From Naegleria gruberi (Eukaryota): a stretch of DNA of 64,000 bases. A program made the position numbers and the translations under genes. Positions 27,653-51,424 of the stretch are shown one piece after another. The stretch lies in NCBI GenBank assembly GCA_000004985.1, contig GG738894.1; one strand, given 5' to 3'. The notes beneath the pieces are model-generated. The model was not told the origin of the DNA and searched no databases. It saw nothing but the letters and a program-made list of their open reading frames with translations. Numbering within the stretch: position 1 is the first letter of the stretch; every line of letters begins with the position of its first letter.

Positions 27653-27764
27653 TTTTAACAATTTTGTAAATAGGAAGATAAAGTGATTTTTAAATTATTT
27701 CTCTATTCTTTAGTTACTTAAATAAGAATATCATATTTTAAAGAAGATTACTAGTTCAAGCTTT

Positions 27765-30128: not shown

Positions 30129-30864
30129 TTTTTTGATTTTGATTTGAAGAAATCGAAAAGATTGGTGAAAATTGTTTCAATCGTGAATTGAATGAAATAT
30201 TTACATCAAGTCTTGATGATAGAAATTGGATAAGGAATTGATAAGGGTAATCATTAGTGTGTGTGATGGATTGAAAGAAACCTTCCTTGGAAAGCAAAAA
30301 TAGATTCTCAAAGAATTAGTATTCGAGAAAATAATTACACTTCATTCTACAACAATAACAGCAACATTATCTTCCAGTTGTACAACTTTAAAGCAGATCA
30401 TTGCAAAGGCCTTCATTGTTGTCAAACAATAACTTCATCAATTGGAGTAATCCACGTTGTGCTGGAAAAAAATAAGCTTTTCTAAAAATTGTGGAAAGAG
30501 AGAAAAAGCCTTCGCTGTTGTAAGATCACCTGCCACTGCTACATAGCTTCATCATTTGTTTGCAAAGTAGAAGGCTCTCTTGTCAAGAATAACATAGTAG
30601 TTGTGTTTCTAGATTGGATAATTTTTTGATAAAACAAAAGGAGGAACACATTCTCAAGGGGTTGTTGTTGAATACAATTGGAACACTATTCTTTACGAGA
30701 CAATTCTACTATAATTTTTGTAATTAGGAAGACTAGAATACTTTGTTTTACTCACTTGCTTTTTGTATTATAGTAGCATTTGGACAGGAATTAAATTTTG
30801 GAGTGAACATCCTTCTTCTTCTTCAGTTAACTACATCATCACTGCTGAAGAACCATCTTCTTGA

Positions 30865-32577: not shown

Positions 32578-32938
32578 TTAATATGATATTCTTCAATATC
32601 ATATCATATTACGAGATGTGTTGATAAATAATTCCTAGAGAAATGTTGGCAAGCCAATTTTGCAAGTCGTGGCTTGTGCAATAAATTCTTTAAAAGTGTA
32701 TGTTTTTCACATGATGTTAAAATTAATTATTGAATATGATGCTGAAACAAAATAGAAATGCAAGATGTTGTTTTCAAATTGAATCCTGTGCGATAGTTTT
32801 TATTGTCAGGTGAGAATTGATGAAGAAGGTTGATAATTTTTTTCCCTCTACCTTCCCTTCAAAAATATTCATTGTAAACAACGTGCAAACTAGTTAACCG
32901 GCAAAAAATAAAAAGTTTTGTTGAAAAAAAATATCGAA

Positions 32939-33398
32939 ATGTCTACTCAAACAAAGCAAACCACCCAACAACAAGGAAAGGTAAGCATATCTAGAACAAC
33001 AAATACTTAACATTCTTCCTCTCTATTATTATTCACCCAATTCATAAATACTTGTGGAAATAACATTATTACAGAAGAAGACTTCTGAAAACATCAATGC
33101 TCGTCTTCAATTGGTCATGAAGAGCGGTAAATACACTTTGGGTTATGCTGAAACCATGAAGAACTTGAGACAAGCTAAGGCTAAACTCATCATTGTTTCT
33201 AACAACATTCCTCCAATCAGAAAGTCAGAAATCGAATATTACTCCATGTTGTCCCACGCTGATATTTACTTCTATCCTGGTAACAATATTGAACTCGGTA
33301 CTGCTTGTGGTAGATATCACTCTGTTGGTGTCATGTCTGTTTTGGAAGCCGGTGACTCTGATATCGTTAGAGCTGTCAAGATGATGCAAAATCAATAA
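32939..33398 (+). CDS. RPL30: 60S ribosomal protein L30 (eL30). Two exons, 32939-32980 and 33075-33398; intron 94 nt.
   Basis: Exon 1 [14 protein letters not shown] ends at GTAAGC(32981). Acceptor TTATTACAG ends at 33074. Joined protein ...[26 protein letters not shown]...[25 protein letters not shown]....[28 protein letters not shown] matches human RPL30 closely. Confidence 0.9.
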
Positions 33399-33554
33399 AT
33401 TTAAAAATTAAAATTATTAATTAATTCATTAACTTCAATGTTTTTCACTACCATAAAAAACGTTGGTATCTTATCCAACTACATTTTTCTCTCCTAGACT
33501 CAGATATTCATCTGATTGAAGTGGTAGAAAGAGTAAAAAAACAATTTTTAAAAA

Positions 33555-34136
33555 ATGTCTTCAAATAATAATCAAAGATTGCCACCAATTCATGAATTGG
33601 CTCCATTGATGAGAAATCCGAATAACCCTGTTGTATTCTTTGATGTTAGCATTGGTGGTCATGCAGTTGGTAGAATTAAAATTGAATTATTTGCTGATGT
33701 TACACCAAAGACTGCTGAAAACTTCCGACAATTCTGCACAGGGGAACATTTAAAGAATGGAGTGCCTGTTGGATACAAGGGTTGTGCTTTTCATAGAGTT
33801 ATTAAAGATTTTATGATTCAGGGAGGTGATTTTGTTTCTGGAGATGGAACTGGATCTTACTCAACATTTGGAACTGATCAATTCAATGATGAGAATTTTA
33901 CTTTAAAACATGATAGACCTGGAATTCTTTCAATGGCCAACAGTGGTCCAAATTCAAATGGTTGTCAATTCTTTTTAACAACAACTAAAACACCATGGTT
34001 GGATGGAAAACACGTTGTTTTTGGAGCTGTATTGAAAGGATTTGAAGTTGTGAAAAAAGTTGAAGCTGTAGCAGTTTTTGGTTCATCAAACAAACCAAAA
34101 ATGTCATGTCTCATTACTGAATGTGGAGAGTTGTAA
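33555..34136 (+). CDS. PPIH: Peptidyl-prolyl cis-trans isomerase, cyclophilin H type (U4/U6 snRNP cyclophilin), 193 aa, single exon.
   Basis: About 70% identity with human PPIH over the whole domain: [37 protein letters not shown]...[28 protein letters not shown]...[32 protein letters not shown]. Confidence 0.95.
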
Positions 34137-34352
34137 GATGTGAAATGAGGATTAGTGACAAGTATGATAGTTAACATGATATTTCAATTATAATAATTTA
34201 AGACTTGGATTTATTCTATCATACATTTAACACTCGCTTAATTGAGTTATTTCATATTCGATTATTGAATAATTGAGACATTTGTAAAGAAAACAAACTC
34301 TATGTACAACAGTTTTAACAGAATATATTCAAGATTTGTAAAGTAAAGTTAT

Positions 34353-35633
34353 TTAATTTTTCAAAATGAAATCTCTGAGACGATTTTGGCTAGAGGCAAA
34401 GGATAAACAAGAGACAAGGGTTTCACAATTTTGTCTACGATCCCAAATGAATGGGCACAAGTCACGAATGATAGTGTCCTTATTATTATCGTGTGCAAAT
34501 GATCTTACAAGTAAACATGTCGAAGAGCAATCCATTGTTGCAATATTATTGGTCTTCTTCAATTGTTGAACGGCTTTTACCTTATCAGATTCAAAATTGA
34601 ATAATGAAATAATTCTGATAAGATCACTATTACCCATTGGAGAAATTTGAGATGTGGAGTATGTTACAAGAATCTTCATCTTGTCACTATCAAAACTCTT
34701 TCCTTGACAAGCAGTAATTATTGTATTGGCAAGTGAGCTCGATGTAACTGGCGTTGTTTGCATATAAACTTGAGGTTGACCATATGGTTGTGGTTGAGAG
34801 AATGGTTGTGGTTGTCCAAATGGCTGTGGTCGACCGAATGGTTGTGGAGGAGTAAATGGTTGAGGTTGGCTAAAAGGTTGTTGAGGTGGATAATTTGGAT
34901 TCATTGGTGGATTATAGGTTGGGGGAATAATAGTGCTTGGAGTTGTAAATGAAACACTAATACCAGAATTTCCAATAGAAACACCATATCCAGTATTCAC
35001 AGTAGTTGGTTGCATGGATTGCATGGTGCATCTGAAAACATCACCATTTGAAAGTGGAATATTGTTCATATCATATGTTTCAGCTCTCAAAGGATGTTGA
35101 GTTCCTTGGAATTGAATATACATGGTATGCTTATTCGAGGAGATATCTTTGATAACATAGAATTCTGCACTTCTTCCATCTTGTTGATTTCTCATCGTGA
35201 AATATCCAGCATGTGGACAAGAAGTGATGGTCCAGGATTTGCCAGAATTTTCAGTATAAGTAGTATTGACATTTTGTTGATTCATTACGGAAGAGGCCAC
35301 CATTCCATGATTCAATCCATTAACATTATAGACACTTGGTTGGGAAAAGTTGGCACTACTTGAAGCTCTATAAAAGTTATCACCCATTCCGTACAATGTA
35401 TTTCCATCTGGGCTAGAAGTGAGTCTCCAATGCACATTTCCATCAAATGTAATGTGAATTGCCCAATCACTTACACTTGTTGGTGATACCTTAGTTGAGA
35501 CCAGTGTACCTGTGGCCATTCTATTGGTTCCCTGTTGAATCCATTGAAAGGAATTTCCATTTTGTGTTGACTGCCAAATTCTACCACTTCCCTCTCTCCA
35601 GGAACCTCCAATACTTGGTGTGACGTTACCCAT
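34353..35633 (-). CDS. N-myristoylation-signal protein (MGN...) with a beta-rich N-terminal domain, a P/Q-rich repeat linker (PQPFGQPQPF x ~8) and a C-terminal DUF4476-like domain; 426 aa.
   Basis: Long ORF starting MGNVTPSIGG. Repeat PQPF(S/T/G)(Q/P/R)PQPF between ~aa 230-280. The C-terminal ~110 aa (ACQGKSFDSDKMKILVTYSTSQISPMGNSDLIRIISLFNFESDKVKAVQQL...) resembles DUF4476 from memory only. Confidence 0.5.
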   Translation of the reverse strand: MGNVTPSIGGSWREGSGRIWQSTQNGNSFQWIQQGTNRMATGTLVSTKVSPTSVSDWAIHITFDGNVHWRLTSSPDGNTLYGMGDNFYRASSSANFSQPSVYNVNGLNHGMVASSVMNQQNVNTTYTENSGKSWTITSCPHAGYFTMRNQQDGRSAEFYVIKDISSNKHTMYIQFQGTQHPLRAETYDMNNIPLSNGDVFRCTMQSMQPTTVNTGYGVSIGNSGISVSFTTPSTIIPPTYNPPMNPNYPPQQPFSQPQPFTPPQPFGRPQPFGQPQPFSQPQPYGQPQVYMQTTPVTSSSLANTIITACQGKSFDSDKMKILVTYSTSQISPMGNSDLIRIISLFNFESDKVKAVQQLKKTNNIATMDCSSTCLLVRSFAHDNNKDTIIRDLCPFIWDRRQNCETLVSCLSFASSQNRLRDFILKN

Positions 35634-38026: not shown

Positions 38027-38069
38027 TTATTTCTAAAGATTGAAACAAGAGATTCAACAATATAGCCCG

Positions 38070-38148
38070 AGTTAATATGTAAAATGAATAAATTTCTGCA
38101 TCCAATTATTTAAATATTCTTTATATTCATTGTATTAAGGAAATGAAT
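38070..38148 (+). repeat. Conserved 5' flank of 5S copy 1; it recurs at 48964-49041 upstream of copy 3.
   Basis: ...TGTAAAATGAATAAATTTCTGCATCCAATTATTTAAATATTCTTTATATTCATTGTATTAAGGAAATGAATGG matches copy 3's flank with about 5 substitutions and 1 indel. Copy 2 lacks it. Confidence 0.8.
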
Positions 38149-38266
38149 GGCTACGGCCATATCACGATGAATGCACCTCATCCCGTCCGATTTGAGAAGT
38201 TAAGCATCGTCGAGCCACATCAGTACTGAGGTTGGAGACAACTTGGGAACCTGTGGTGCTGTAGTC
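38149..38266 (+). rRNA. 5S_rRNA: 5S ribosomal RNA gene, copy 1 (118 nt) followed by a T5 Pol III terminator (38267-38271).
   Basis: GGCTACGGCCATATCACGATGAATGCACCTCATCCCGTCCGATTTGAGAAGTTAAGCATCGTCGAGCCACATCAGTACTGAGGTTGGAGACAACTTGGGAACCTGTGGTGCTGTAGTC. The helix I ends pair (GGCUAC/GUAGUC). Universal 5S blocks are present (CCGUCCGAUUUG...GAAGUUAAGC, loop C/box A region, GGGAAC...GGUGCUGUAG). Shares the GUUGGAGACAAC block with dictyostelid 5S. Confidence 0.9.
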
Positions 38267-38803
38267 TTTTTAATTTCAATTTAATTTCAAGCTTATTGTT
38301 TTTACAGCTTTAAATATTGAAATGTAGAGAACATTGAAATGGAAATGTTCAAATATGTGAAGAAAATTAAATACAAATCATTTGACATTTAAAGAACTTT
38401 ATTGAAAAACTTGTAAATTCAATCTTATCCAAATTGTTTGGGTTGTTGTTTACTATTAAGGAGACTCTTTTAACTGCTGTGGATTCACATTACTGCAAAT
38501 ACTTGGTTACAATCAGGGATTCCCTCCCTCTACATTAATTATCAGCCCTCTCGCCACTCTTTCTAGAACGATTTGATTGGACAAGAGGGCTCAATGAATC
38601 TATGAAAATACTCGACTGAAGATTCATTGCAGTAGGTTTCTTTTTTAATTGAACAAGAGACAATTTTCACATTCAAGCCAGCTCTCTTTCTATTCATATT
38701 TTAGGAAATGCCACTTTCAAACTTTTGAAGCAAACATTGATGAATGAAATTTTCATTTGATCAACAAGTTCATAGAAGGATCAATATCAGTTATATCTGT
38801 CTT

Positions 38804-38846
38804 CTACGGCCATATCACCTCATCTCAATTAGGAACCTGTCTTTTT
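38804..38846 (+). pseudogene. Internally deleted 5S rRNA relic (about 43 bp).
   Basis: CTACGGCCATATCAC|CTCATC|tcaattag|GAACCTGT|CTTTTTG. It has an exact 15-mer from 5S positions 3-17, then 5S 28-33, then 5S ~100-107 and the oligo-T tail. This is a 5S gene with two internal deletions in the spacer between copies 1 and 2. Confidence 0.7.
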
Positions 38847-39914
38847 GTCTTATTGATTTTTCAAGGGTAAGTTGGCCTAGTTGTCCACTTCCATTTCACA
38901 GATTATTATAGCATTTGTGCAAGGAATGAGGAAATTCTCCACTTAATTAGTTGTTTCTTACAACTTCGGGAGGAAGTTCTTAAAAATTGTGAGCTGATCT
39001 TGAAGCCATGATGGAAATTGCTCCACCTCAATAATTTAATCAAGTCAACATTCAATTATTTTCTTGAATTGAAATTTATATTTTTCACACATAAAAGTAC
39101 CACAATTTTTTAACCTCACTTTTCACACATTCAAAACCAATATCACAAACCTCACAAATCAAACTAGATAAAACCATTGACTGTACTTCTACAGGATCTT
39201 TTCTGTAGGAATACATAAACTCGACTTTTTTGAGTCAATCTGACCTTTGAGGTTAACCAAGATGAAGACTCTGTAGTCATATATCTTGAGCATGATATCG
39301 AACTGGAAACATGCTTCGTTGTAGGTTTCCTCGTTCATAGATGATTGCTGCATTCCTTACCAGCCATGGTTTGTGAATGGGGGATTTGTGAACATGCAGA
39401 TTGGTACCTTAATTTTTTTAATAATTAATAGAAACTTAAACAATTTCAATGAACCTATGTTTCTTTTGTTGATTTTCACTCATCATGTGAACATGCAGAT
39501 CTATTAGATCTATTTGGAACTTTCTTTGCATTTTAGGTACATAAATGAAAGAGTTCTTCACTACCTTGGCCAACAGATTGAAATTTATAAGGAAATTCAA
39601 AAAGATCAGTTATCAAATTTTGTCACCCCTTTAATTGAAACTTCCATTTCAGAGTTGGATCTATTTTTAAAGAAAGAATTATACCATAATGAAATGAATG
39701 TTTTCAATTCTAACATCACGATCAGCTCATTTCTCTGAAGTGTTGGTGGCGAAACTCCATCCATGCCTTTTTTACCTCCTGTTAAAATTTCATTAAGAAT
39801 TTGAATGGAACTTTGGTATTAGTTTTATCTGGTTCAAAACCATCAATTTTCGAATGGTGTTTTAGTACTCACTCACAAATTAAACTATAACAAATTAAGA
39901 GATAGCTCATTATC

Positions 39915-40032
39915 TTAATTTTTATAACAACAATGGCTACGGCCATATCACGATGAATGTACCTCATCCCGTCCGATTTGAGAAGTTAAGCATCGTCGAG
40001 CCACATCAGTACTGAGGTTGGAGACAACTTGG
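39915..40032 (+). rRNA. 5S_rRNA: 5S ribosomal RNA gene, copy 2 (118 nt), T5 terminator 40033-40037.
   Basis: Identical to copy 1 except one transition (GAATGTACC versus GAATGCACC). Upstream flank is unrelated to copies 1 and 3. Confidence 0.9.
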
Positions 40033-40245
40033 GAACCTGTGGTGCTGTAGTCTTTTTATATTTTCCAAAACGAATGTCAAATTTCCTTTTTAGAGTCTAT
40101 TGAAAATGCATTTAATTTGTCAACTACATCATTTGTCATAGTGTTTGTCAATTCTAACAACAAAAAATACCACACGCATCCATTTTCAATAATAAATTAA
40201 ATAATACCACAGGATCACTACAGTCAACACATCATTATCATCATC

Positions 40246-40764
40246 ATGGTCAAACACTCCGTCAAGAAACTCATTCCACTGAGTAGAGAAGAATATTGGA
40301 AAATAATATTTACTGATGATTTTGATAAATTCACAGCTCCTCTGCTCAAATTCAACAAAGTTGAAACTGAAACACTTCCAAGTGAAGATGTTAATATTGT
40401 CAAGAGAACTGCCAAAGTCTTTCCAGATTATGACATTCCCCATGCATTGTTGCACTTGTTAGGTCAGGAAGAATTTCACTATGTCGATCATCAGGAAAAG
40501 AATTTATTGAACTATACCATGAATAGTAATACTATGCCTCCACTGAGTCATCACGATATTCTAAAGATCAGTACTCATCAACATATTGAACCAATTGACG
40601 AACATAGTTGTTATCATGTTTTGGAAACAGAAATTCACTGTTCTGTGTTGTTACTTGGTCACTTGGTTGAGAAGGCAATTATTCATGGTGTTGAGAATGG
40701 TTATGATTTATTACCAAAAGCCGTGGAAGCTTACATTGCTCACTTGAATTCGGAAGTAAAATAA
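40246..40764 (+). CDS. Hypothetical 172-aa protein; weak resemblance to PRELI/SRPBCC-type lipid-binding folds.
   Basis: ORF with start context catcatcatcATGG. C-terminal ...GHLVEKAIIHGVENGYDLLPKAVEAYIAHLNSEV resembles the PRELI C-terminus pattern (…EWVIHKLNAEIEE) only loosely. Confidence 0.4.
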   Translation: MVKHSVKKLIPLSREEYWKIIFTDDFDKFTAPLLKFNKVETETLPSEDVNIVKRTAKVFPDYDIPHALLHLLGQEEFHYVDHQEKNLLNYTMNSNTMPPLSHHDILKISTHQHIEPIDEHSCYHVLETEIHCSVLLLGHLVEKAIIHGVENGYDLLPKAVEAYIAHLNSEVK

Positions 40765-41068
40765 TTTGAATTTGAACCACTCTATTTTTAAATTATGCAA
40801 ATAATATGAAAATAGTTATGAAAATGAATGTGCATTTATGAAATTGAAGAAGAGGTTCATTTTCGTAAGTGAATCAGAGGTTCAAATTCAAACAAGTCTG
40901 AAAATGAAGCTGTGGAGGTTCAAGTTGAAAGCAAGCAAATTTAGCTCTATTTAAACACCTCTCAAAAGTATTCTCACTCCATCAAACAAACAAAAAAAAA
41001 CAACAAATTAACTAACAGCTCATTCAATAGCTCAATATTCAAATACAGATTATTTAAATAATTACAAT

Positions 41069-43633
41069 ATGGTCAAGTTCAGTAAAGAAATACTCGAAAG
41101 GCTCTTACTCGACAGTAACAAGATTCGTAACATTAGTATTATTGCTCACGTTGATCATGGTAAATCAACACTCACTGATCAATTGGCTTTAGCAGCTGGT
41201 TTAGTGGATGAAGATGCTGCAGGTGAGAAGAGAGTTTGCGACGTAGATAAGAATGAAATTGAAAAGGGTATTACCATTAAATCAACAAGTTTGAGTATGG
41301 TTTTGGAAAATCCAGACAAGGAGAATGATCATCATTTGGTTAATTTGATCGATTGTCCAGGTCACATTGATTTCTCATCTGAAGTTAGTACAGCTTTGAG
41401 AATTACTGATGGTGCAGTGTTGATTGTAGATGCTGCTGAAGGTTGTAGAGGTCAAACTGAAACAGTAATTAGACAATCTCTTCAAGAAAGAATTCGTCCA
41501 GTTCTCTTCATTAACAAGGTTGACCGTTTAATTGAAGAAATGCAATTTACTGAAGAAGAAAGTTATCAAAACTTTTTAAGAATTATCGAGTCTGTGAATG
41601 CTCTATTATCAACTTATTCTGATGAGTCAGTTTCTGTTGATCCAGTTGATTGTAACATTGCTTTTGGATCAGGTAAGATGGGTTGGGCTTTCACTTTGGA
41701 GCAATTCGCTCAATTATATAGCAAGAAGTTTAAACTTCCTGTAGAGAAGGTTATTAACAAATTATGGGGTGAAAATTATTATGATCACTCAACTAAGAAG
41801 TTTACCACTGAACCTTATTCATCGACAAGTGGTCAACAATTGAAGCACACTTTCTGTGAATTCATTTTAGAACCTATTTTCAAGATTTTCAAGTTGGTTA
41901 GAGAACATGAAATTTCGAGTGAAGGTATTTTGTCAACAGATTTGGAAAATATCATTAGTGCATTGTCTATACCTCTGACGAAAGAAGAAAAGAGAAAAGA
42001 GCCGAAACTTTTAGCTAAATCAATCATGAGAAAGTTCCTCCCAGCTCACAAACCTCTAGTTCAAATGATTATCAACCATTTACCTTCTCCTAAGGAAGCT
42101 CAAAAGGTCAGATATGATAGCCTCTACACTGGTGAAGATTTGACAGATCCATACGCTACTGGTATTAAGGAATGTGATCCAAATGCACCACTGGTTGTCT
42201 ATGTCAGTAAGATGGTACCTATGCACTCTAATACTAGCTCTAGTATGAGTAATAATGTTGGTCGTTTTATTGCTCTAGCTCGTATATTCTCTGGTAGTTT
42301 GACTCAATCAACTAAGGTGAGAATTTTGGGTCCTAACTATGATCCAATTGCTAAGAAAGATGTTTTCCATACAAGTATTCAAAGATTGTTAGTCATGATT
42401 GGTAAAAATACTGAAAGCATCACTCAAGCTTCTTGTGGTGCCATCGTAGGTATTGTTGGTCTTGACAAGTACATTATCAAATCATGTACATTGACAGAAG
42501 AAGGACAAGTTGCATGCATGCCAATTAAGAATATGAAATACTCTGTGAGTCCTGTAGTTCAAATGGGAGTTGAGCCAGTCAATCCAGCAGATTTATCTCG
42601 ATTTGTTGAAGGTTTGAAACGTCTCGTTCAAAGTGATCCTCTATTGGAATGTAAGCAAAATGATAGTGGTCAACATATTCTTGGAACAGCAGGTGAATTG
42701 CATTTGGAAATTTGTTTAAAGAATTTAGAAGAAGAATATGCAAGAGGAATTCAAATTAAAAAGTCTCCTCCTGTTGTCACTTTCCACGAAACAGTTTCAA
42801 ATAAGAATGGTGACATGGTCATGGCAAGAAGTGCTAACGGCCACAATCGTTTATATATGCAAGCTGAACCAATCAGTGAGGAATTAATTGAAATGATTAA
42901 GGAAGGTCAATTGCCAATGGATGATCAAAATAAGAGAGCAAAGATTTTAGAAATTGACTTTGAATGGGATCCTAGCATAACAAAGAGAATTTGGAGTTTT
43001 GGACCTGAAGCTGATAAGGGTAGTAACATTTTGGTAAATGCAACCAAGTCAGTTGACTATATTAATGAAATTCAACAATATGTGGTCACTAGCTTCCAAC
43101 AAAGCAGTTCTTCAGGAGGTTTATGTGACGAAGCAATGAGAGGTGTTTTATTCAAATTTAATGATTGTAATCTTCATGCAGATTCTATCCATCGTGGAGC
43201 TGGTCAAATTCTCCAAGCAACATCTCGTGTCATGACTGCTAGTCAATTGAGAGCTGATCCAAAGTTAGTTGAACCAATGTATCTTGTTGAAGTTCAATGT
43301 CCTCAATCAGTGATGGGTTCTGTCTATAGTGTCATTTCTAATAGAAGAGGTGTTATCAAATCTACTGAAATGGTAATTGGTACTCCTCTCGTTAGTATAA
43401 CTGGTAATTTACCTGTGCTGGAAAGTTTCGGTTTAACAGAAGAGTTGAGAGGTGTTACTCAAGGACAAGCTTTCCCTCAATGTAGTTTCAGTCACTGGAA
43501 AGTTATGGAAGACAATGTTTATGATCCTCAATCTAAAGTTCACAAACTCATCAAATCTATCAGAAAGAGAAAGGGTCTTAAGGAAGATATACCACTCTAC
43601 ACAGATTACTGTGATACAATGCCTAAACAATAA
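41069..43633 (+). CDS. Elongation factor 2 family GTPase, a divergent EF-2 paralogue (854 aa, single exon).
   Basis: G1 AHVDHGKSTL. G3 LIDCPGHIDF. G4 NKVDR. EF2-specific block DGAVLIVDAAEGCRGQTETVIRQSLQERIRPVLFINKVDR. Diphthamide-site context LHADSIHRGAGQI. C-terminal SHWKVMEDNVYDP...IRKRKGLKEDIP parallels EF2 HWQILPGDPFD...TRKRKGLKEGIP. Overall identity to canonical EF-2 is clearly lower than usual (N-terminus MVKFSKEILERLLLDSNKIRN versus [21 protein letters not shown]). Confidence 0.85.
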   Translation: MVKFSKEILERLLLDSNKIRNISIIAHVDHGKSTLTDQLALAAGLVDEDAAGEKRVCDVDKNEIEKGITIKSTSLSMVLENPDKENDHHLVNLIDCPGHIDFSSEVSTALRITDGAVLIVDAAEGCRGQTETVIRQSLQERIRPVLFINKVDRLIEEMQFTEEESYQNFLRIIESVNALLSTYSDESVSVDPVDCNIAFGSGKMGWAFTLEQFAQLYSKKFKLPVEKVINKLWGENYYDHSTKKFTTEPYSSTSGQQLKHTFCEFILEPIFKIFKLVREHEISSEGILSTDLENIISALSIPLTKEEKRKEPKLLAKSIMRKFLPAHKPLVQMIINHLPSPKEAQKVRYDSLYTGEDLTDPYATGIKECDPNAPLVVYVSKMVPMHSNTSSSMSNNVGRFIALARIFSGSLTQSTKVRILGPNYDPIAKKDVFHTSIQRLLVMIGKNTESITQASCGAIVGIVGLDKYIIKSCTLTEEGQVACMPIKNMKYSVSPVVQMGVEPVNPADLSRFVEGLKRLVQSDPLLECKQNDSGQHILGTAGELHLEICLKNLEEEYARGIQIKKSPPVVTFHETVSNKNGDMVMARSANGHNRLYMQAEPISEELIEMIKEGQLPMDDQNKRAKILEIDFEWDPSITKRIWSFGPEADKGSNILVNATKSVDYINEIQQYVVTSFQQSSSSGGLCDEAMRGVLFKFNDCNLHADSIHRGAGQILQATSRVMTASQLRADPKLVEPMYLVEVQCPQSVMGSVYSVISNRRGVIKSTEMVIGTPLVSITGNLPVLESFGLTEELRGVTQGQAFPQCSFSHWKVMEDNVYDPQSKVHKLIKSIRKRKGLKEDIPLYTDYCDTMPKQ

Positions 43634-43684
43634 GAGTTTTAACATTTAGTAATAAATTACCTTTTTCTCCAATCTTGCCATAGC

Positions 43685-44680
43685 TTATTTTCTTAGTGAT
43701 ATTAATTGTTTCATTTCACTTATGAATTTTGCTCCTTCACCACCAATTCGATTGCCAGCAATATCAAGTGATGTCAATTGTTTCATTTCACTAATGAATT
43801 TAGCTCCTGCATTACCAATTTCATTGCGAGTAATATTAAGTGATGTTAACTGCTTCATTTCATTGATGTATTTTGCTCCTTCATCACCAATTACATTGTA
43901 AGAAATATTAAGTGATGTTAATTGTTTCATATCACCTATGAATTTAGCTCCTGCATCACCAATTACATTGTTAGCAATATTAAGTGATGTTAATTGTTTC
44001 ATTTCACTTATCAATTTTACTTCTTCATCACCAATTTGATTTCCACCAATATCAAGTGATATTAATTGTTTCATTTCACTAATGTATTTTGCTCCTTCAC
44101 CACCAATTCTATTATTATATATATAAAGTGATGTTAATTGTTTCATTCCACTGATGAATTTTGCTCCTTCACCACCAATTACATTGCCATTAATATTAAG
44201 TGATGTTAATTGTTTCATTTCACTTATCAATTTTGCTCCTTCACCATCAATTCGATTGTAACTAATATCGAGTGATATTAATTGTTTCATTTCACTGATA
44301 AATTTGAGTTTTTCTATGCCTCCAAGCAAATATCCCAAAAATTTAAGATTAACAATACTATTCATAAATTGACTTTTCATGAATAATTCAACTCGTTTCT
44401 CTGTAAATTTTTTTTTAAATTGAATAACAAGTTTTGAACGTTCCTTGATCACATTAAAGAATTGTTTTGAAATTAAAGTACAATTATTTAAAATAAACCA
44501 CGAATCATCAATCATGCAAATTATTTCAAAACAAATATCATCTGAAAATGTTTCTTGTTCGAGTTTCACATGCTTTTTTACTTTCTCTTCCATAATATTA
44601 TTATTATTATTGTTAGTGAATATTTCATCCGAACTAATTAATTGATGATTTTCAAAATCTTGTCTGTTTCGTTTGCTCAT
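43685..44680 (-). CDS. F-box-like / RNI-type leucine-rich-repeat protein (331 aa) encoded by near-identical tandem 72-bp units.
   Basis: About nine 24-aa repeats of form EMKQLTSL(N/D)I..N.IG.EGAKFIS. N-terminal DDICFEIICMIDDSWFILNNCTLISKQFFNVIKER is F-box-like. Confidence 0.8.
   Translation of the reverse strand: MSKRNRQDFENHQLISSDEIFTNNNNNNIMEEKVKKHVKLEQETFSDDICFEIICMIDDSWFILNNCTLISKQFFNVIKERSKLVIQFKKKFTEKRVELFMKSQFMNSIVNLKFLGYLLGGIEKLKFISEMKQLISLDISYNRIDGEGAKLISEMKQLTSLNINGNVIGGEGAKFISGMKQLTSLYIYNNRIGGEGAKYISEMKQLISLDIGGNQIGDEEVKLISEMKQLTSLNIANNVIGDAGAKFIGDMKQLTSLNISYNVIGDEGAKYINEMKQLTSLNITRNEIGNAGAKFISEMKQLTSLDIAGNRIGGEGAKFISEMKQLISLRK
43690..44300 (-). repeat. Tandem array of ~72-bp near-identical units (at least 8 copies) that form the LRR-coding part of the gene above.
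   Basis: Period 72 bp: TTGTTTCATTTCACT.ATGAATTT.GCTCCTTCACCACCAATT....CCA..AATATCAAGTGATGT.AA, with most substitutions at 3rd codon positions. Confidence 0.85.
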
Positions 44681-44864
44681 TTTTTTTTAAATTCATGTTA
44701 AGGCTTTGATTCATGGCTAATTTGGATTCAATCTCAGAAACAAAATTGAAATAGCACCGTTCTGAAAGTAGCTTCTCCCATTCATTGATAGAAGAGTTCT
44801 TATTGGTACTCAAAATACTTTCCTGAAACATTTGTGGATAACGTATATTCTTTGTGAATGTAAA

Positions 44865-44937
44865 GGGGATGTAGCTCACATGGTAGAGCGCTTCTTTAGC
44901 ATGGAAGAGGTACGGGGATCGATACCCCGCATCTCCA
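44865..44937 (+). tRNA. tRNA-Ala(AGC): tRNA-Ala (anticodon AGC), 73 nt, no intron.
   Basis: GGGGATGTAGCTCACATGGTAGAGCGCTTCTTTAGCATGGAAGAGGTACGGGGATCGATACCCCGCATCTCCA. Acceptor stem 7 bp with the G3:U70 alanine identity pair. D-arm AGCTCA..GGTAGAGC (A box). Anticodon loop TTAGCAT. T-arm GGGGATCGATACCCC (B box GATCGATACC). Confidence 0.95.
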
Positions 44938-44944
44938 CTCTATC

Positions 44945-44950
44945 TTTTTT
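44945..44950 (+). terminator. Oligo-T (T6) Pol III terminator 7 nt downstream of the tRNA-Ala 3' end.
   Basis: ...ATCTCCA ctcTATC TTTTTT. Confidence 0.7.
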
Positions 44951-45411
44951 ACGGCATTCAAAATAATTCAATATGGCATATGTGATTTGCTAAACGAAAA
45001 GTTAAAAACATGCACACCAGCTTACGATTTCATTGGTGTTGTGTTTGGTTCAACGACAATAAATGTTGCTTTTAATAATTAACCACAAGTGTCATTTTTA
45101 AAATGATCAAAATTCAAAAGTGATAAATAGATGGTGATCAAGCTAGATCTATTTCTTCAACAACCTGTTTCGCATTGAACAAAACAAGATTCGTCAAAAG
45201 AACTCTTGAATTCACTGTTCATACAGTCAAAGACTGTAGCGGGATTGTCGCCATATTCCTGGCAGGCTTCCCGTCCAAATTATTAATTGAATCTTATTAG
45301 AACATTCTTCCTCATTTACTTGACAAACAAAAAAAACTTTAGTTTGTTCTTGATATTTATTTAGCTCTTGAGGGATTGAGTGCAATTAACTCAAGGAATT
45401 GGCTTTCTAAA

Positions 45412-48400
45412 CTAGGCCAATTCAACATCAGTGGCACCAGCCATAATTAAATCTTTTGCCAATGAAGCAGATGCTTTCTTCTTCATCATGATTACAATAG
45501 TTGTAATCAATACAGCAACACCACCTCCAATAACTGCAACAGAAACAATTGGAACAACAACTGCTGCAACAATCACTCCTGTATTCTCACTGTGTACTGA
45601 GTCAATAGCAAGGAAAGGAAGCGAAGTCAATCTTGCTGAAATCTGAGGAATGTTTTTTAGTTGAAGAGAAAGAGCTGTTTCAGTTTCAACTCTGAAGGAA
45701 ATGAGCGTCGAGTTGAGGGAAAGAGCTGCCTTAGCTGTTAAGGAACCTGTTTTGGAAAGAGAGGCTGGTAGATTAAATGGAATGGAAGATGTCAGCTGTT
45801 GGTGGACAGTTGAAGAGGAATCAAATTGACCATCTAATAGGAATTCAATAAAAATGTTAATGGATTGGTTGACATAATAATCAAGAAATGAAGAATCTTG
45901 AATGGAAAGAGAAATAATGGTTGAAATATCTCCAACAATATCACTAGTATTGTTGAATGATAACTTCATTGCTTGGGAAAGGAATTTAAATTGACACTTA
46001 TTGCCAATGAAATCCTTCTTACAATGACAGGTGTCATAATTAACACAATCACCTTGAGAGGAGCAAACTTTTGAATCAACAGATGTTTCACCATAACAAT
46101 AGGTAATGTTACATTGTGGTCCGAACCATTTGCTTTCATTCACACATTTACAGTAATCAAATGAACGACAAGTTCCATTTCCAAGATTGCAAACTTGTGA
46201 GCTTTCTTGTTCTATGCCAAAACATGAAGTAAATTGACAATTTGATCCACTGTATCCATATTCACATTCACATTGATCTACATTAAGGCATGTTCCTCTT
46301 CCACTACATACAGAGCTTGAACTTTCCAATATTCCATTGCATTCCACTAGTTCACAATTGTTTCCTCCAAATCCATTCTCACAAATGCAAGTATTCAAGA
46401 ATTTGCAAACACCATGAGAATTACAAACTCTTGTTGAATTGAATTCGACACCATTACATTTAAAGTATTGACATTCTTCACCAAAATAATTGAAATCACA
46501 TTTACAATAATCAGTTGACAAACATTTTCCATTTCCAGAACAAGATCTATTATCCAACTTTTCAATGCCAAAGCAGATTGGATTTTTAAGCTTGCATTCA
46601 TTTGGTGCATCGCAATACTGTTCAGTATCATTGCAGACACTGCTGTCATTTGCCAATTTACCAAAACAAATTGGAAATTGACACGTTGTCGAAGGTCCAT
46701 ATCCATCTGAACAATTACAATTGTTATAGGAAATGCATTTTCCATTTCCAAAGCAAACATTGCTGTCATCAGAAGGTACAGAATTACAAGTAGTTTTTTC
46801 ACAATTAGTTCCATAATAATTCGAATCACATTTACAATAGTTTGGATTCGTACATTGACCATTCGAAGAACAAGCTCTGGAATTGTTGGAAGGAACTCCG
46901 TGACAGATAGGTATCTCACAATTCAATCCAGTCCATCCACTGTTGCAGCTGCAAGTATCTGGAGCTAGGCAAGTACCGTTTCCTTGATTACAGATTTGAT
47001 TAGTTTGATTCGAATAGATACCAAAACAGTTAATCAATTCACATTCAGATCCATCATACCCACTCATGCATTGACACTGATTCGGTGCTGTACAATTTCC
47101 ATGAGAATTACAAACCAATGGATCTGTACCAAGTTTCGTATTACAAAAAGGAATTTCACATTGAGATCCTCCATATTTGGAATTACATTGACACTGATCA
47201 ACTGAAATGCAATTTCCTTGTCCTGAACATACACTCAATGATTGATTTGCTAAAATTCCAAAACAAATTGGAATTTCACAAAAACTGCCAGAGTACATTG
47301 AGGAATTAAAACATTGACAAGTGTCATATTCAAGACAATTGCCATTTCCAGAACAAACAGATGGATCATTAGAGAGTGTACCATTACATTTTGATATATT
47401 GCAAAATGTTCCTTCGTAATTTTCATTGCATTCACAAATATTGTAATCAACGCATGTTCCATGATTCGAACAAGTATTTGAATTATTCGAAAACTTTCCA
47501 TCACAAGTAGTGACATTACACTCAATTCCATAATAATTGGAATTACATGAACAATTATTCACATCTATACATTCACCATTCATACTACAATATAAAGTTG
47601 AATTCTTTCCAAAACATTTTGGCAGTTCACATGCCATACCATAATAATTATTGTTACATTGACAGGTGTCCACATCAATACATAATCCATGTGATGGGCC
47701 TCCACATGCTTCATTCCCAGACTTTGTGAAACACAATGGATTGCATAATCTTCCATCAGAGCTCAATACTAAACCATCCTCACAGTATGGATATAATTTC
47801 CTAACAGTTCCAGAAGCAATCATTTCAGTAATGTAAACTTCATTCTTTCCACTCACAAAAATTCCATTTGTATTGCTTATTAAACAAGTAAGCGCATCTG
47901 AATCGTCTGGACAACTGGAGCCAATTAGTCCAACACCAGCAATTTGCCTTAACGTTCCATTATAAACCTTAACTCTACCTGATGATTCAGCAATATAGAA
48001 TTCATTCTTACTTGTTCTAAATATACCCTTTGGAGAGGAAAGATTCTTGAGAAAGTAAGTTCCAGAACTAGCAGAGCCATAAGCTCCTGGTTTACCAATG
48101 CAATCAAACGAACTGAAATAAATATCTGATGGGAAAGAAAGTGCCACTCCAACGGGTTTATCGAAAACATCTAATACATAATAATTTTGTGAGGCCAAGT
48201 TGAAAATTCCAATATCACCATTTCCAAATATTCCATAAATGGCAAAAACTAATTGATTTAATCTCTTGTCTAAAATTAAAAATCTTACATTACCAACACC
48301 AGTTTTTAGTGTTGTAATGGTATTGGAAATTTCATCAACAACCCGTATATTGCCATTATCTTCGCCAATGTAAATTTTTCGGCTAGTTTCGTCCACCCAA

Positions 48401-48803
48401 ATATAAGGTCTTGCTATTTAAAGTTATAACAGAGGAATTATATTTTGATAACCTACTTAATTGTGCTTGTGTAGGAACCATCACTGCACTACTAGTATCA
48501 GAGCCTCCACCAGCCACAATTACTTTCGTTCCATTAGTATAAATTCTAATAGAGAATCATGATCATATTGAACATAAACAGGACGAAACAACAACACACT
48601 TACTTGCTCACGACACTCTCTTCAGCTACATAAATATCTCCATTCTCAAACACGCTGACTGAAGTTGGTTTTACCAATGAATCAACCACTGTTCTAATCT
48701 TGAATTTCACATCTGCAGATTTTGTCAAGTGGGGAAACACGAAAAGCAAGCTAAAAATTAACACAATTGAGTTGATGACTACCCATTTGTTGTTGTTGAG
48801 CAT
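45412..48803 (-). CDS. Secreted/type-I membrane protein with N-terminal NHL-type beta-propeller repeats, about 19 EGF-like Cys-rich repeats, one TM helix and a short cytoplasmic tail. Three exons: 48603-48803, 48457-48545 and 45412-48413.
   Basis: Exon 1 encodes the signal peptide (MLNNNKWVVINSIVLIFSLLFVFPHLTKSA). Minus-strand introns: GTAAGT (plus 48597-48602) to TTAG (plus 48546-48547), 57 nt; and GTAGGT (plus 48451-48456) to AAATAG (plus 48414-48415), 43 nt. Splice phases are consistent, giving ...ESVVSK|IYTNGTKVIVAGGGSDTSSAVMVPTQAQL|T|RPYIWVDETSRKIYIGEDNGNIRVV.... Repeated (D/E)xYIAE/YITE NHL motifs. EGF repeats of form C.(C/G)..G.C.....C.C...Y.G..C. TM helix VIVAAVVVPIVSVAVIGGGVAVLITTIVIMM then KKK. 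Confidence 0.8.
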
Positions 48804-48963
48804 TTTGTTTTTGCGGTAAGATTAATTTGTTGTGAAAAAAGAAACTGTCAAGTCCATCAAAATATTCATAAAAGATGTGTTTCCTTTTTCAAACAATTAT
48901 GAATAAATTAAGCAAAAAATGGACCAATATACAGGCTAAGATGTAATTTCACTCTTTGTTCCT

Positions 48964-49041
48964 AGTTATTTGTAAAATGAATAAATTTTGCCTTCCAATT
49001 ATTAAAATATTCTTTATATTCATTGTATTAAGGAAATGAAT
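48964..49041 (+). repeat. Conserved 5' flank of 5S copy 3 (homologous to 38070-38148).
   Basis: See the copy 1 flank; about 90% identity over ~75 bp. Confidence 0.8.
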
Positions 49042-49159
49042 GGCTACGGCCATATCACGATGAATGCACCTCATCCCGTCCGATTTGAGAAGTTAAGCAT
49101 CGTCGAGCCACATCAGTACTGAGGTTGGAGACAACTTGGGAACCTGTGGTGCTGTAGTC
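49042..49159 (+). rRNA. 5S_rRNA: 5S ribosomal RNA gene, copy 3 (118 nt), T5 terminator 49160-49164.
   Basis: Sequence identical to copy 1. Confidence 0.9.
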
Positions 49160-49267
49160 TTTTTATCAAATTATACATAATACATTCGAAATCATTTTAT
49201 TGGAAAGGTATTCTGGTATTGCACTTTAAAGTTTACAAAATGTTCGAACAAAAAATCAACAAAAAAA

Positions 49268-51424
49268 ATGGCACAACATCAATACCACTACATTCTCAAT
49301 ACACAAGAAGAATTTAATTATTCAAATTATGTTCCGAATAATGTTCGTCCAGAGACAAAACTTCAGGAAATTAAGAAAATTTTCAAGGAATGTTTCGGAA
49401 ATGTAGAGTTAATTGTTGAATGTTTGAAGGGATTTGATGAGAAAACTTATGCCAACTTGTGTTATACCGAGTGGAAAGAGTCGAATTTCTTATCGAGAAT
49501 ATCTAAATGGTTATTCCTGGGATTCGGAAAAGAAGAAGAACAATCAGAATTGTTAAATAATAGTAGTAGTAGTGGTCGTAGTAGTGCAGTAAAATATGAT
49601 ACAAGAATTGTTGGGGAGTATTTTAAAATTTTGGATATGGCAATTATGCGTGATCTTACCTATAGTAATGTGATCAATTCTTATTCCTTATTCCCTTCAA
49701 AGAATGAACGAGTGTGGAATGAAATTGTTAATTATTGTCTTTATTTGATAGATTTGGCTGATTCTGCAGATAGAGGTTTGACAATTTCGTATGCTCTGAG
49801 GAGATTTATTCAGAGAGACAATAGAATTAAAGATCTTGTTGCAGAAAAGAGAGAAAACTTGATTCAAATGATGATTAGATTGACTAGATTTCCAACCAAT
49901 CAAACATTATTGACGAGTAATCATTCTCTGATGGTTTATTGGACTCTCAAGTTGCTCGAATTGAGTGGTGTAGAGAAATGGAATGGAATAATTGAATACG
50001 AAACAACTTTGGAGAAAATTCAGGGATTTTACTTGAAAGCATTAGTTAGCACTCTTCCTGAAAACTTGCTTGATAGGCATTGCGCTAAATATCATATTGA
50101 ACCTTATGAAATTGTAACAGAGGTGTTTAATCTTTCCAATTCTTGCTATTTGAAGAACGGTGACTCTGTTTCTTGTCTATTTGATGATCAATTGATTTGT
50201 ATGAGAGAATTTACAATAGTTTCTATGGCAAATACTATCATGAATAGATCAGGGATTGAAATCGATGAGTTAATGCTTAATTCCTTAGCTAGAGCTCTCA
50301 AGTTGCAAAATGACAATAATGCGTGTAAGCTTTTCAGCGCGACGATTTCTTCCTTCTTTGAGCAAAATCCCAAACAACCGATTTCTGAGCTCAATTACTC
50401 CATAATTAATCTATACTGTTCCATAAGAATGCAATCTACCTTCAAATTATATTGTGAAATATTCAATAGTAATGAACAAAGAGTATTCATTTCCAATACT
50501 ATTATGGATCCTTTTCTCGACCATTTTATGGAAATAAGGAAAGGAAAAGACTATACTGATTTGAAGAATATTATAGACTGTTTTGATGCATTTGGGGAGA
50601 GTAGTTCGTTTCTTGATGAGAGAATGGTGACCCTGTTTGTGGATTTTGGTCAAACATATAGTGTATTGGGGGCTTTTGCATCTATTATTCAAAATAGAGG
50701 AGCTGAGCTGATGAACATCATGGATGGAGCAATGTGCAATCGTTTAGAAAAACGGTTAGAAATACGTATTTCAAGGTATTGTGACGGTGGTTGGTTTGCT
50801 GTTTTATGCTCAGCACTGGAAAGTGGATTATTTTGGAATATTATTGAAAAATCGAGGCAATTAACTGAGCCAAACTTTACAATAACTGAGAAATTCAAAC
50901 AAGGCTACACTTTAGAACTTGTGAAAAAAGTGAGACAAGAACATGAAGGTGGCACTGCTGATCCTCCTTTCTACATTCTCTACTGTTTGTGGTTCCTCTT
51001 AATGGAGAACATTGAAAAATCTAACAAGGTTAGTAGAGGAAAGAAAAATGAAATGTACAGAGCTCTCGTTAAACTATCTTTGATTCCAAGAGATTATGAC
51101 TGTGGCAGTCCTTTTGATTCTGTGTTTGCCTTCTTCCTACTTGCAGAACTTGAGGAAAATGTGGAAGAAAACATGAGTATTATTTTGGAAAATATGGATG
51201 CAATCATTAATAGTATGTATGAACAATCAAACAGAAGCACAAGCTTTTTAAGCTTTGCAATAAGTAGATTATTGGAAAACATTGAAAGATTCCTCTATCA
51301 CTACAGTGGAAGAGATGAATTGCAAAATGCAATTCGATTCGAATTAAAACAGGCCTTAATTCACTTGCCAACAGATGAGCATCCAAAACTTTTAGAAGCC
51401 ATTCACAAGCTTATCGATAATTAA
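49268..51424 (+). CDS. Hypothetical alpha-helical protein, 718 aa, single ORF.
   Basis: Long ORF with start context caaaaaaaATGG. Codon usage and composition match the neighbouring genes. No recognisable motifs. Confidence 0.55.
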   Translation: MAQHQYHYILNTQEEFNYSNYVPNNVRPETKLQEIKKIFKECFGNVELIVECLKGFDEKTYANLCYTEWKESNFLSRISKWLFLGFGKEEEQSELLNNSSSSGRSSAVKYDTRIVGEYFKILDMAIMRDLTYSNVINSYSLFPSKNERVWNEIVNYCLYLIDLADSADRGLTISYALRRFIQRDNRIKDLVAEKRENLIQMMIRLTRFPTNQTLLTSNHSLMVYWTLKLLELSGVEKWNGIIEYETTLEKIQGFYLKALVSTLPENLLDRHCAKYHIEPYEIVTEVFNLSNSCYLKNGDSVSCLFDDQLICMREFTIVSMANTIMNRSGIEIDELMLNSLARALKLQNDNNACKLFSATISSFFEQNPKQPISELNYSIINLYCSIRMQSTFKLYCEIFNSNEQRVFISNTIMDPFLDHFMEIRKGKDYTDLKNIIDCFDAFGESSSFLDERMVTLFVDFGQTYSVLGAFASIIQNRGAELMNIMDGAMCNRLEKRLEIRISRYCDGGWFAVLCSALESGLFWNIIEKSRQLTEPNFTITEKFKQGYTLELVKKVRQEHEGGTADPPFYILYCLWFLLMENIEKSNKVSRGKKNEMYRALVKLSLIPRDYDCGSPFDSVFAFFLLAELEENVEENMSIILENMDAIINSMYEQSNRSTSFLSFAISRLLENIERFLYHYSGRDELQNAIRFELKQALIHLPTDEHPKLLEAIHKLIDN

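Follow-up and report, generated by a model that had tools for sequence, protein, structure and literature searches.

Three Dispersed 5S rRNA Genes of Naegleria gruberi NEG-M and a 206-bp Unit Common to Two of Them

Three complete 5S rRNA genes were revealed in the analyzed 64,000-nucleotide stretch of contig GG738894.1 (hereafter the window). Almost certainly they are ordinary nuclear 5S genes of Naegleria gruberi NEG-M belonging to a dispersed family of approximately 280 copies, and copies 1 and 3 owe their common flank to one 206-bp event. These genes are already known and are a typical part of the N. gruberi genome.

Identity and Structure of the 5S rRNA Genes

All three genes lie on the + strand, copy 1 at 38149–38267, copy 2 at 39935–40053 and copy 3 at 49042–49160. 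Their identity is established by matches to the Rfam model RF00001 with scores of 105.4, 103.0 and 105.4 bits, respectively (gathering score 38). Each copy is complete over positions 1–120 of the model, without truncation, and the E-values (1e-21 to 1e-22) show that the matches are not due to chance. Thus, the earlier note, made from the letters alone, was right in describing three intact full-length 5S genes on the + strand. Its coordinates were correct within 1 nt for copies 1 and 3, while those given for copy 2 (39915–40032) were 20 bp too low.

As had been claimed, copies 1 and 3 agree at all 119 of 119 positions. Copy 2 differs from them by a single substitution, C>T at position 25, which replaces a C-G pair by a U-G wobble. 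In the cmscan alignments every helix of the three-way junction is paired, and the substitution in copy 2 is compatible with this pairing. The description of copy 2 as carrying one substitution and an unrelated flank also proved accurate: it has in common with the other copies only the gene itself, 3 bp upstream of it and the terminator. The 3' ends of all three copies read GTCT followed by TTTT, so that at least four T residues directly follow each gene, and the T5 run reported behind every copy (in copy 1 it extends to position 38271) was indeed present.

The organism was established from the protein-coding genes. Five ORFs of the window match exactly the N. gruberi NEG-M proteins EFC40135–EFC40139, encoded on a scaffold of 499,907 bp, and a sixth one clusters with EFC40134; an EF2-like paralogue is 99% identical. 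Consistent with the initial description, the 5S genes are dispersed between unrelated chromosomal protein-coding genes; for example, the 3' end of copy 3 is separated by 108 bp from the ATG codon of EFC40139.

The GGTTGGAGACAAC of the 5S genes in the window presumably resembles that of Dictyostelium 5S rRNA. A dictyostelid or amoebozoan origin of the DNA, which this similarity and the AT-rich, intron-poor genes might have indicated, was ruled out by the matches to NEG-M proteins. Since the host is N. gruberi NEG-M, the comparison made in the earlier note with the rDNA palindrome of Dictyostelium is not applicable. Both Dictyostelium discoideum and Naegleria carry the 18S, 5.8S and 28S genes on a multicopy extrachromosomal element; the 5S gene is present on the extrachromosomal palindrome in Dictyostelium but not on the circle in Naegleria (PMC5805870).

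Relation to the Catalogued 5S Gene Family

The three copies were compared with the catalogue of 279 putative 5S genes located on 117 scaffolds of N. gruberi NEG-M (Feng et al., 2012, PLoS One 7:e36878; PMC3369914, Table S1). They correspond to scaffold_50:134152, 135938 and 145045 (entries R33468, R33469 and R33752, spaced by 1786 and 9107 bp), and the positions of all three differ from those in the window by the same offset, 96003. The genes and their spacing are therefore the same as those published, and they are likewise unlinked to the rDNA unit. A further, solitary 5S gene is located on this scaffold at scaffold_50:344821. Because the copies belong to this scattered family, catalogued in 2012, their occurrence between protein-coding genes is ordinary. 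The suggestion that they represent a new genome organization must be abandoned, as the same copies are already included among the 279 scattered loci listed in Table S1 (PMC3369914) and the extrachromosomal rDNA circle lacks a 5S gene (PMC5805870).

Re-analysis of the coordinates given in Table S1 revealed a median gap of 34 kb between the genes, with only one gap shorter than 1 kb and 22 gaps of no more than 3 kb. Five triplets, including the present one, fall within 11.1 kb; these are loose clusters, and there are no true tandem arrays among the listed coordinates. Therefore, the 2012 coordinates describe a dispersed, loosely clustered family, contrary to the label 'tandem' used for this arrangement in Table 1 of the same paper (PMC3369914). 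The window agrees with such an organization: with spacings of 1786 and 9107 bp and unrelated flanks the three copies do not form a head-to-tail array, and a U3 gene, a tRNA gene and four protein-coding ORFs are located between them.

According to published data, the Naegleria rDNA circle carries only the 18S, 5.8S and 28S genes (PMC5805870), and chromosomal 5S genes are expected for this reason. In N. gruberi none of the large rRNA genes is chromosomal, which leaves 5S as the sole rRNA gene on the chromosomes. The statement, made in several papers on the Naegleria rDNA circle, that chromosomal rRNA genes do not exist is therefore true only when 5S is disregarded. Even at E<=1 the window gave no match to SSU, LSU or 5.8S rRNA, so the 5S copies are not linked to rDNA there. 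The members of the 5S family occur singly or in loose clusters, dispersed among the protein-coding genes of the chromosomes, with 18S, 5.8S and 28S residing on the separate multicopy circle.

These data also bear on the possibility that the 5S copies are assembly artefacts arising from extrachromosomal DNA or from rDNA repeats that were collapsed or wrongly placed. The scaffold does contain N gaps (at 54983–55032 and from 56509 on), and short-read assemblies are often broken by repeats. Nevertheless, every copy is surrounded by unique sequence and adjoins annotated NEG-M genes, the flanks of the three copies all differ, the window is devoid of 18S, 5.8S and 28S genes and the rDNA circle of 5S genes. 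Moreover, an independent metagenome contig (L016) matches positions 27671–34771, upstream of the cluster, with 99.2% identity. An artefact thus appears extremely improbable, the least credible of the explanations considered here.

Dispersed 5S gene families are also typical of Neurospora crassa and Schizosaccharomyces pombe. In Acanthamoeba castellanii about 100 5S copies are distributed across most chromosomes (PMC9528979). N. gruberi resembles these three organisms in having many near-identical single 5S genes that lie between Pol II genes and have unrelated flanks, and in the structure of these genes as autonomous Pol III units, each with a terminator of its own and with short upstream elements rich in AT. 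It differs from them in its systematic position (Heterolobosea) and in the wholly extrachromosomal location of its large rRNA genes.

The 206-bp Unit Common to Copies 1 and 3

Self-BLAST revealed that copies 1 and 3 share a unit of 206 bp with an identity level of 96.1% (38067–38272 versus 48961–49165). The unit spans the region from -82 to the terminator and has sharp ends, which establishes the extent of the duplication: outside it identity drops to the background (33/100 positions upstream and 27/100 downstream). Pairwise alignment of its upstream part, located on the + strand at 38067–38148 in copy 1 (-82 to -1) and at 48961–49041 in copy 3, gave 76 identities over 82/81 bp (about 93%). 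The common flank described in the earlier note is therefore real and slightly longer than the 75 bp claimed. The idea that it is general to 5S genes was not upheld, as the block is absent both from copy 2 and from the only other near-identical 5S locus available for comparison, located on a metagenome contig (L005).

Divergence within the unit is distributed unevenly. Between copies 1 and 3 the block contains six differences, all of them located from -82 to -38, and the proximal 37 bp (-37 to -1) are 100% identical. Furthermore, no differences were found among the 119 positions of the gene, as against 8.7 predicted from the divergence of the flank (Poisson P=1.7e-4). The flank common to copies 1 and 3 would most plausibly stem from one local event at the DNA level, whether the duplication of a small segment or gene conversion, that covered the entire 206-bp unit. 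Copy 2 would then be an independent member of the family, its near-identity to the others being maintained by selection and/or concerted evolution.

Alternatively, the gene and its flank could be supposed to move together by transposition or retroposition, for instance as a 5S-derived SINE or a transposon-borne cassette. The occurrence of a sharply delimited 206-bp unit twice, 10.9 kb apart, within a highly dispersed gene family would be in line with this explanation. In 5S-derived SINEs (e.g., zebrafish SINE3) a 5S-like head is joined to a body of unrelated sequence with a LINE-like tail, and target-site duplications surround the element. The genes of the window are similar to them in being dispersed 5S-related sequences but, unlike them, are complete 5S genes that end at the terminator, lack duplications and share additional sequence only upstream. 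Direct repeats flank neither 206-bp unit, and homology stops at the T5 run, with no A-rich or LINE-like tail behind it. At the other end it reaches 82 bp upstream of the transcript, into a region that would not be copied during retroposition of a Pol III transcript. In addition, no transposase or reverse-transcriptase ORF adjoins the unit, and copy 2 has only the gene in common with the other two. Because target-site duplications and a tail are absent, the 206-bp unit is unlike a mobile element, and we regard this origin as very improbable. Thus, of the mobile or duplicative unit proposed earlier, the co-duplicated block in copies 1 and 3 stands, while mobility finds no support.

Upstream Motifs and Possible Promoter Elements

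An internal control region (ICR) and a TATA box have been reported for the N. gruberi 5S genes, and a homologue of TFIIIA was not found in this organism, according to Feng et al. (2012; PMC3369914). The A-box consensus given there matches the 5S genes of the window at +50. The C-box consensus was located at +80 with two mismatches, and the consensus of the intermediate element is too degenerate to be informative. In the upstream block of copy 1 a TATA-like sequence TTTATATTC occupies positions -29 to -21. Each copy may therefore be considered an autonomous RNA polymerase III unit with a predicted internal control region, an AT-rich, TATA-like element located approximately 25 bp before the gene and a T5 terminator. 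Promoter function and expression, including the activity of any single copy, would follow from these features as a prediction.

The motif TATATTCNTTGT occurs three times in the window, and all three occurrences lie just upstream of Pol III genes (0.09 expected), namely 5S copies 1 and 3 and a tRNA-Ala(AGC) gene. The latter gene, at 44865–44937 on the + strand, was identified by ARAGORN and RF00005 (53.6 bits) and is followed by a T6 run. The proximal 37 bp of the block contain the sequence TATATTCATTGT, whose sole recurrence is upstream of the same tRNA gene; there the motif scan located TATATTCTTTGT at -21 to -10.

These observations raise the question of whether the 82-bp block could function as an upstream promoter module for Pol III, specific to a 5S subfamily and preserved by selection rather than by recent duplication. 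Upstream TATA elements are needed for 5S transcription in several organisms, including Neurospora, Arabidopsis and S. pombe. Such a role would agree with the TATA-like box inside the block, with the restriction of TATATTCNTTGT in the window to the three Pol III genes, and with the complete conservation of the proximal part, the six differences all being distal (Fisher p=0.03). On the other hand, the block is lacking in the equally intact copy 2 and in locus L005, where the 5S gene differs by 1 nt, and a hand count on the alignment of copies 1 and 2 gave agreement at only about 16 of 31 positions between -31 and -1. The motif was defined post hoc, its distance from the gene is unequal (-21 in tRNA-Ala versus -27 in the 5S genes), and there is a single independent pair of duplicates. 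Finally, a conversion tract with its centre in the gene accounts for the gradient of identity just as well. We therefore consider a selected promoter module unlikely, though less so than a mobile or artefactual origin, and prefer the single duplication or conversion event.

A narrower hypothesis can be put forward with somewhat greater reserve. The sequence TATATTCATTGT might be a Naegleria-specific upstream Pol III element, perhaps marking an actively transcribed 5S subfamily in the absence of a known TFIIIA. If so, copies 1 and 3, which possess the module, would differ in activity from copy 2, which does not. A proximal upstream element of this kind could serve as a starting point for the study of Pol III promoters in Heterolobosea.

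Distribution in Related Species and Sequence Collections

The first 25 nucleotides of the 5S gene were not detected in the viral, metagenome and prokaryote-genome collections. A scan with the 27-mer covering loop C and helix III matched 13 metagenome contigs and gave no matches in prokaryote genomes or viral contigs. Among the 13 contigs only L005 contains a 5S gene of the Naegleria type (1 mismatch), with an unrelated flank; the remaining ones belong to a different eukaryote (26–32 mismatches). The 37-bp proximal block was not found in viral contigs.

In related organisms we inspected about 99 kb around the orthologues of the neighboring genes, and no 5S gene was present in these regions of N. 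fowleri, N. lovaniensis, Willaertia magna and two SRA/metagenome relatives. Specifically, 5S, U3 and tRNA genes are absent from the EF2-like orthologue loci of N. fowleri and N. lovaniensis and from the hydrolase loci of N. lovaniensis, Willaertia and the two relatives; the other neighbors of these loci differ too, and no conservation of position was revealed. A metagenome contig encoding a 172-aa paralogue (L017) was examined as a candidate allele without copy 2. Its sequence departs from that of the window on both flanks, and it is thus a paralogous locus that is uninformative in this respect.

A 5S relic, probably a dead pseudogene, was detected at 38804–38846 on the + strand. It retains positions 3–17 of the 5S gene (a 15-nt exact match), short fragments in collinear order and the GTCTTTTT end, and has lost the internal promoter region. 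Its gapped local alignment score was 52.4, as compared with 35.6 for the best of 1912 background windows. The presence of this relic near the intact genes, together with the lack of 5S genes at the corresponding loci of relatives, points to a continual birth and death of 5S copies.

Other Features of the Region

A candidate for an additional Pol III-type RNA at 38436–38650, noticed as a stem followed by a T-run, was rejected: its fold z-score was only -1.55, and no Rfam match was obtained at E<=1. The 82-bp flank, the relic and the U3 gene interleaved with the 5S copies were not found in the accessible part of Feng et al. (2012; PMC3369914). The U3 snoRNA gene lies between copies 1 and 2, at 39177–39405 on the + strand (RF00012, 75 bits; gathering score 34), and a T7 run is located 3' of it at 39416–39422. 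It should be mentioned that this gene, the tRNA-Ala gene and the 5S relic had been overlooked in the earlier note.

Three Catalogued Members of a Dispersed 5S Family

Three full-length 5S rRNA genes, all on the + strand and all covering model positions 1-120, were revealed by an Rfam scan over the whole window (gathering score 38): copy 1 at 38149-38267 (105.4 bits), copy 2 at 39935-40053 (103.0 bits) and copy 3 at 49042-49160 (105.4 bits). The earlier note, made from the sequence alone, had described three such genes but placed copy 2 20 bp too low. A permissive scan of the window at E<=1 gave no further matches beyond the first one. As had been noticed, a T5 run directly follows each gene (3/3), and the alignments bear out the described relationships: copies 1 and 3 are identical (119/119), and copy 2 carries one substitution (C>T at position 25, giving a U-G still scored as a pair in the covariance-model alignment) and flanks unrelated to those of the other copies. 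The observation is confirmed, and its interpretation is only partly supported.

Searching the N. gruberi NEG-M genome, Feng et al. (2012, PMC3369914) arrived at 279 putative 5S genes, which they describe as unlinked to the rDNA unit and as possessing both a TATA box and an internal control region. Table S1 of that paper lists entries at scaffold_50:134152, 135938 and 145045, which are spaced 1786 and 9107 bp apart, precisely as in the window, and a single offset of 96003 maps all three window genes onto them; these genes have therefore already been catalogued. In our re-analysis of Table S1, the 279 entries fall on 117 scaffolds with a median neighbour distance within a scaffold of 34 kb; a single gap is below 1 kb and 22 do not exceed 3 kb. 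For 89 copies the next one is no more than 12 kb away, and five triplets, including that of the window, lie within 11.1 kb. The N. gruberi 5S family is thus scattered, with some loose clustering, and the window is a typical example of it, and the 'tandem' label in Table 1 of the same paper does not fit its own Table S1 coordinates.

The Naegleria rDNA circle carries 18S, 5.8S and 28S, one copy each, and no 5S (PMC5805870), so that chromosomal 5S genes are to be expected. The denial of chromosomal rRNA genes in Naegleria by several rDNA-circle papers (PMC5805870, PMC10586121) overlooks roughly 280 chromosomal 5S genes. Since the same genes stand in Table S1 and a chromosomal location is expected, the proposal of a distinct genome organisation does not hold. 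Dispersed 5S families occur in other organisms as well, for instance in Acanthamoeba castellanii, with about 100 copies over most chromosomes (PMC9528979). The 5S trio was known before and is nothing unusual for the N. gruberi genome; it represents neither a new organisation nor a mobile element.

The Flank Shared by Copies 1 and 3

Self-BLAST delimited a unit of 206 bp common to copies 1 and 3 (38067-38272 vs 48961-49165; 96.1% identity), made up of 82 bp upstream, the 5S gene and the terminator. Just outside it, identity is at background (33/100 upstream, 27/100 downstream). The upstream block claimed earlier is thus real, with a length of 82 bp, and the shared flank goes back to one event at the DNA level, in the form of a small duplication or of a conversion tract. 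Neither direct repeats flanking the unit nor a 3' tail were found at copies 1 and 3, and the extra homology lies 5' of the transcript; these features speak against retroposition or a SINE-like element, and so against the suggested mobile unit. The block is not general; it is absent from copy 2 and from L005, a metagenome contig with the sole other Naegleria-type 5S locus compared. The 5S gene of L005 has one nucleotide different, and the adjoining ORF is closest to Willaertia and N. lovaniensis proteins.

Between the 5S genes of copies 1 and 3 there are 0 changes in 119 positions vs 8.7 predicted by the flank divergence of 6/82 (Poisson P=1.7e-4). This, together with the one-site difference in copy 2 despite foreign flanks, is what purifying selection and/or concerted evolution usually leave behind in a multigene family.

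Putative Promoter Elements

By its features, each 5S copy seems to be an autonomous Pol III type-1 unit, whose transcription the T5 run would end. The A-box consensus employed by Feng et al. matches at +50, and at +80 there is a fit to their C-box consensus, two mismatches apart. Some 25 bp upstream of the gene is an AT-rich TATA-like element, which reads TTTATATTC in copies 1 and 3 (-29..-21), CTCATTATC in copy 2 and AAATTATAG in L005. We infer promoter roles for these elements from what is generally known about 5S genes.

The conserved proximal part of the shared flank might serve as a Naegleria Pol III promoter element, a point of modest interest. Over its 37 bp, copies 1 and 3 agree completely (100% identity), six of six differences falling within -82..-38 (Fisher p=0.03), a gradient for which a conversion tract centred on the 5S gene accounts equally well. 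A motif scan of the window located TATATTCNTTGT three times (0.09 expected), each time a short distance 5' of a Pol III gene: at 38122-38133 (5S-1), 44844-44855 (a tRNA-Ala gene) and 49015-49026 (5S-3). However, the motif was defined post hoc, its occurrences at 5S-1 and 5S-3 are duplicates of each other, and its distance to the gene differs between tRNA-Ala and 5S.

Genomic Context

Five ORFs of the window are identical to N. gruberi NEG-M proteins EFC40135-EFC40139 by exact-sequence look-up, and a sixth clusters with EFC40134; all six proteins are encoded on one 499,907-bp scaffold. These exact matches exclude a dictyostelid origin of the window. Real sequence amounts to only about 56.4 kb, with a 50-N scaffold gap at 54983-55032 and N from 56509 to 64000.

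The segment 36389-43633, which comprises genes for 343-aa, 131-aa, 172-aa and EF2-like proteins along with 5S-1, a U3 snoRNA gene and 5S-2, is matched by an inverted paralogous segment elsewhere on this scaffold (EFC40215-40217). The EF2-like ORF (41069-43633) is 99% identical to an N. gruberi paralogue, the gene being present in NEG-M in at least 4 copies, 99% identical; the ORF at 49268-51424 has an N. gruberi paralogue with 81% identity. Recent segmental duplication or unmerged haplotypes account for the paralogous segment and the EF2-like copies. A lone 5S gene at scaffold_50:344821 (Table S1) may lie in the inverted segment. The 72-bp periodic repeats at 43695-44305 (~83% identity) encode the leucine-rich-repeat units of the ORF 43685-44680 (- strand).

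Three further RNA features had been absent from the earlier note: the U3 gene, the tRNA-Ala(AGC) gene (44865-44937) and a 5S relic. The U3 gene (39177-39405; RF00012, 75 bits) is situated between copies 1 and 2 and shares their strand; the T7 run that comes after it (to 39422) suggests Pol III-type termination, as in plant U3. The stretch upstream of the gene (about 39085-39160) contains two occurrences each of TTTTCACACAT and AACCTCAC. The last 14 nt of its 3' region (GTGAACATGCAGAT, ~39387-39400) are repeated ~90 bp past the gene (~39478-39491), which may be what is left of a second U3 copy, or else an element acting in processing or termination.

Turnover of 5S Loci

The relic (38804-38846) is an internally deleted 5S sequence of 43 nt. 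Its first 15 nt are still present, as are some short collinear pieces and the GTCTTTTT end/terminator, but the internal promoter region is gone. Its alignment score is 52.4 vs a maximum of 35.6 among 1912 background windows. Located beside copy 1, it is one sign of 5S copy gain and loss. Rfam scans of about 99 kb of orthologue loci in total gave zero matches: to a distance of about 10 kb, 5S genes are absent around the EF2-like orthologues of N. fowleri and N. lovaniensis and around the L005 hydrolase orthologues of N. lovaniensis, Willaertia magna and two relatives. 5S positions are thus not conserved between species.

The remaining metagenome contigs with 5S matches (L001-L004, L006-L012; VFQM01/VFQO01) carry a different 5S, with 26-30 mismatches vs Naegleria. 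Ten matches are full-length and two partial (L003, L009), with one 5S per contig and unrelated flanks; these contigs represent another eukaryote with dispersed 5S genes.
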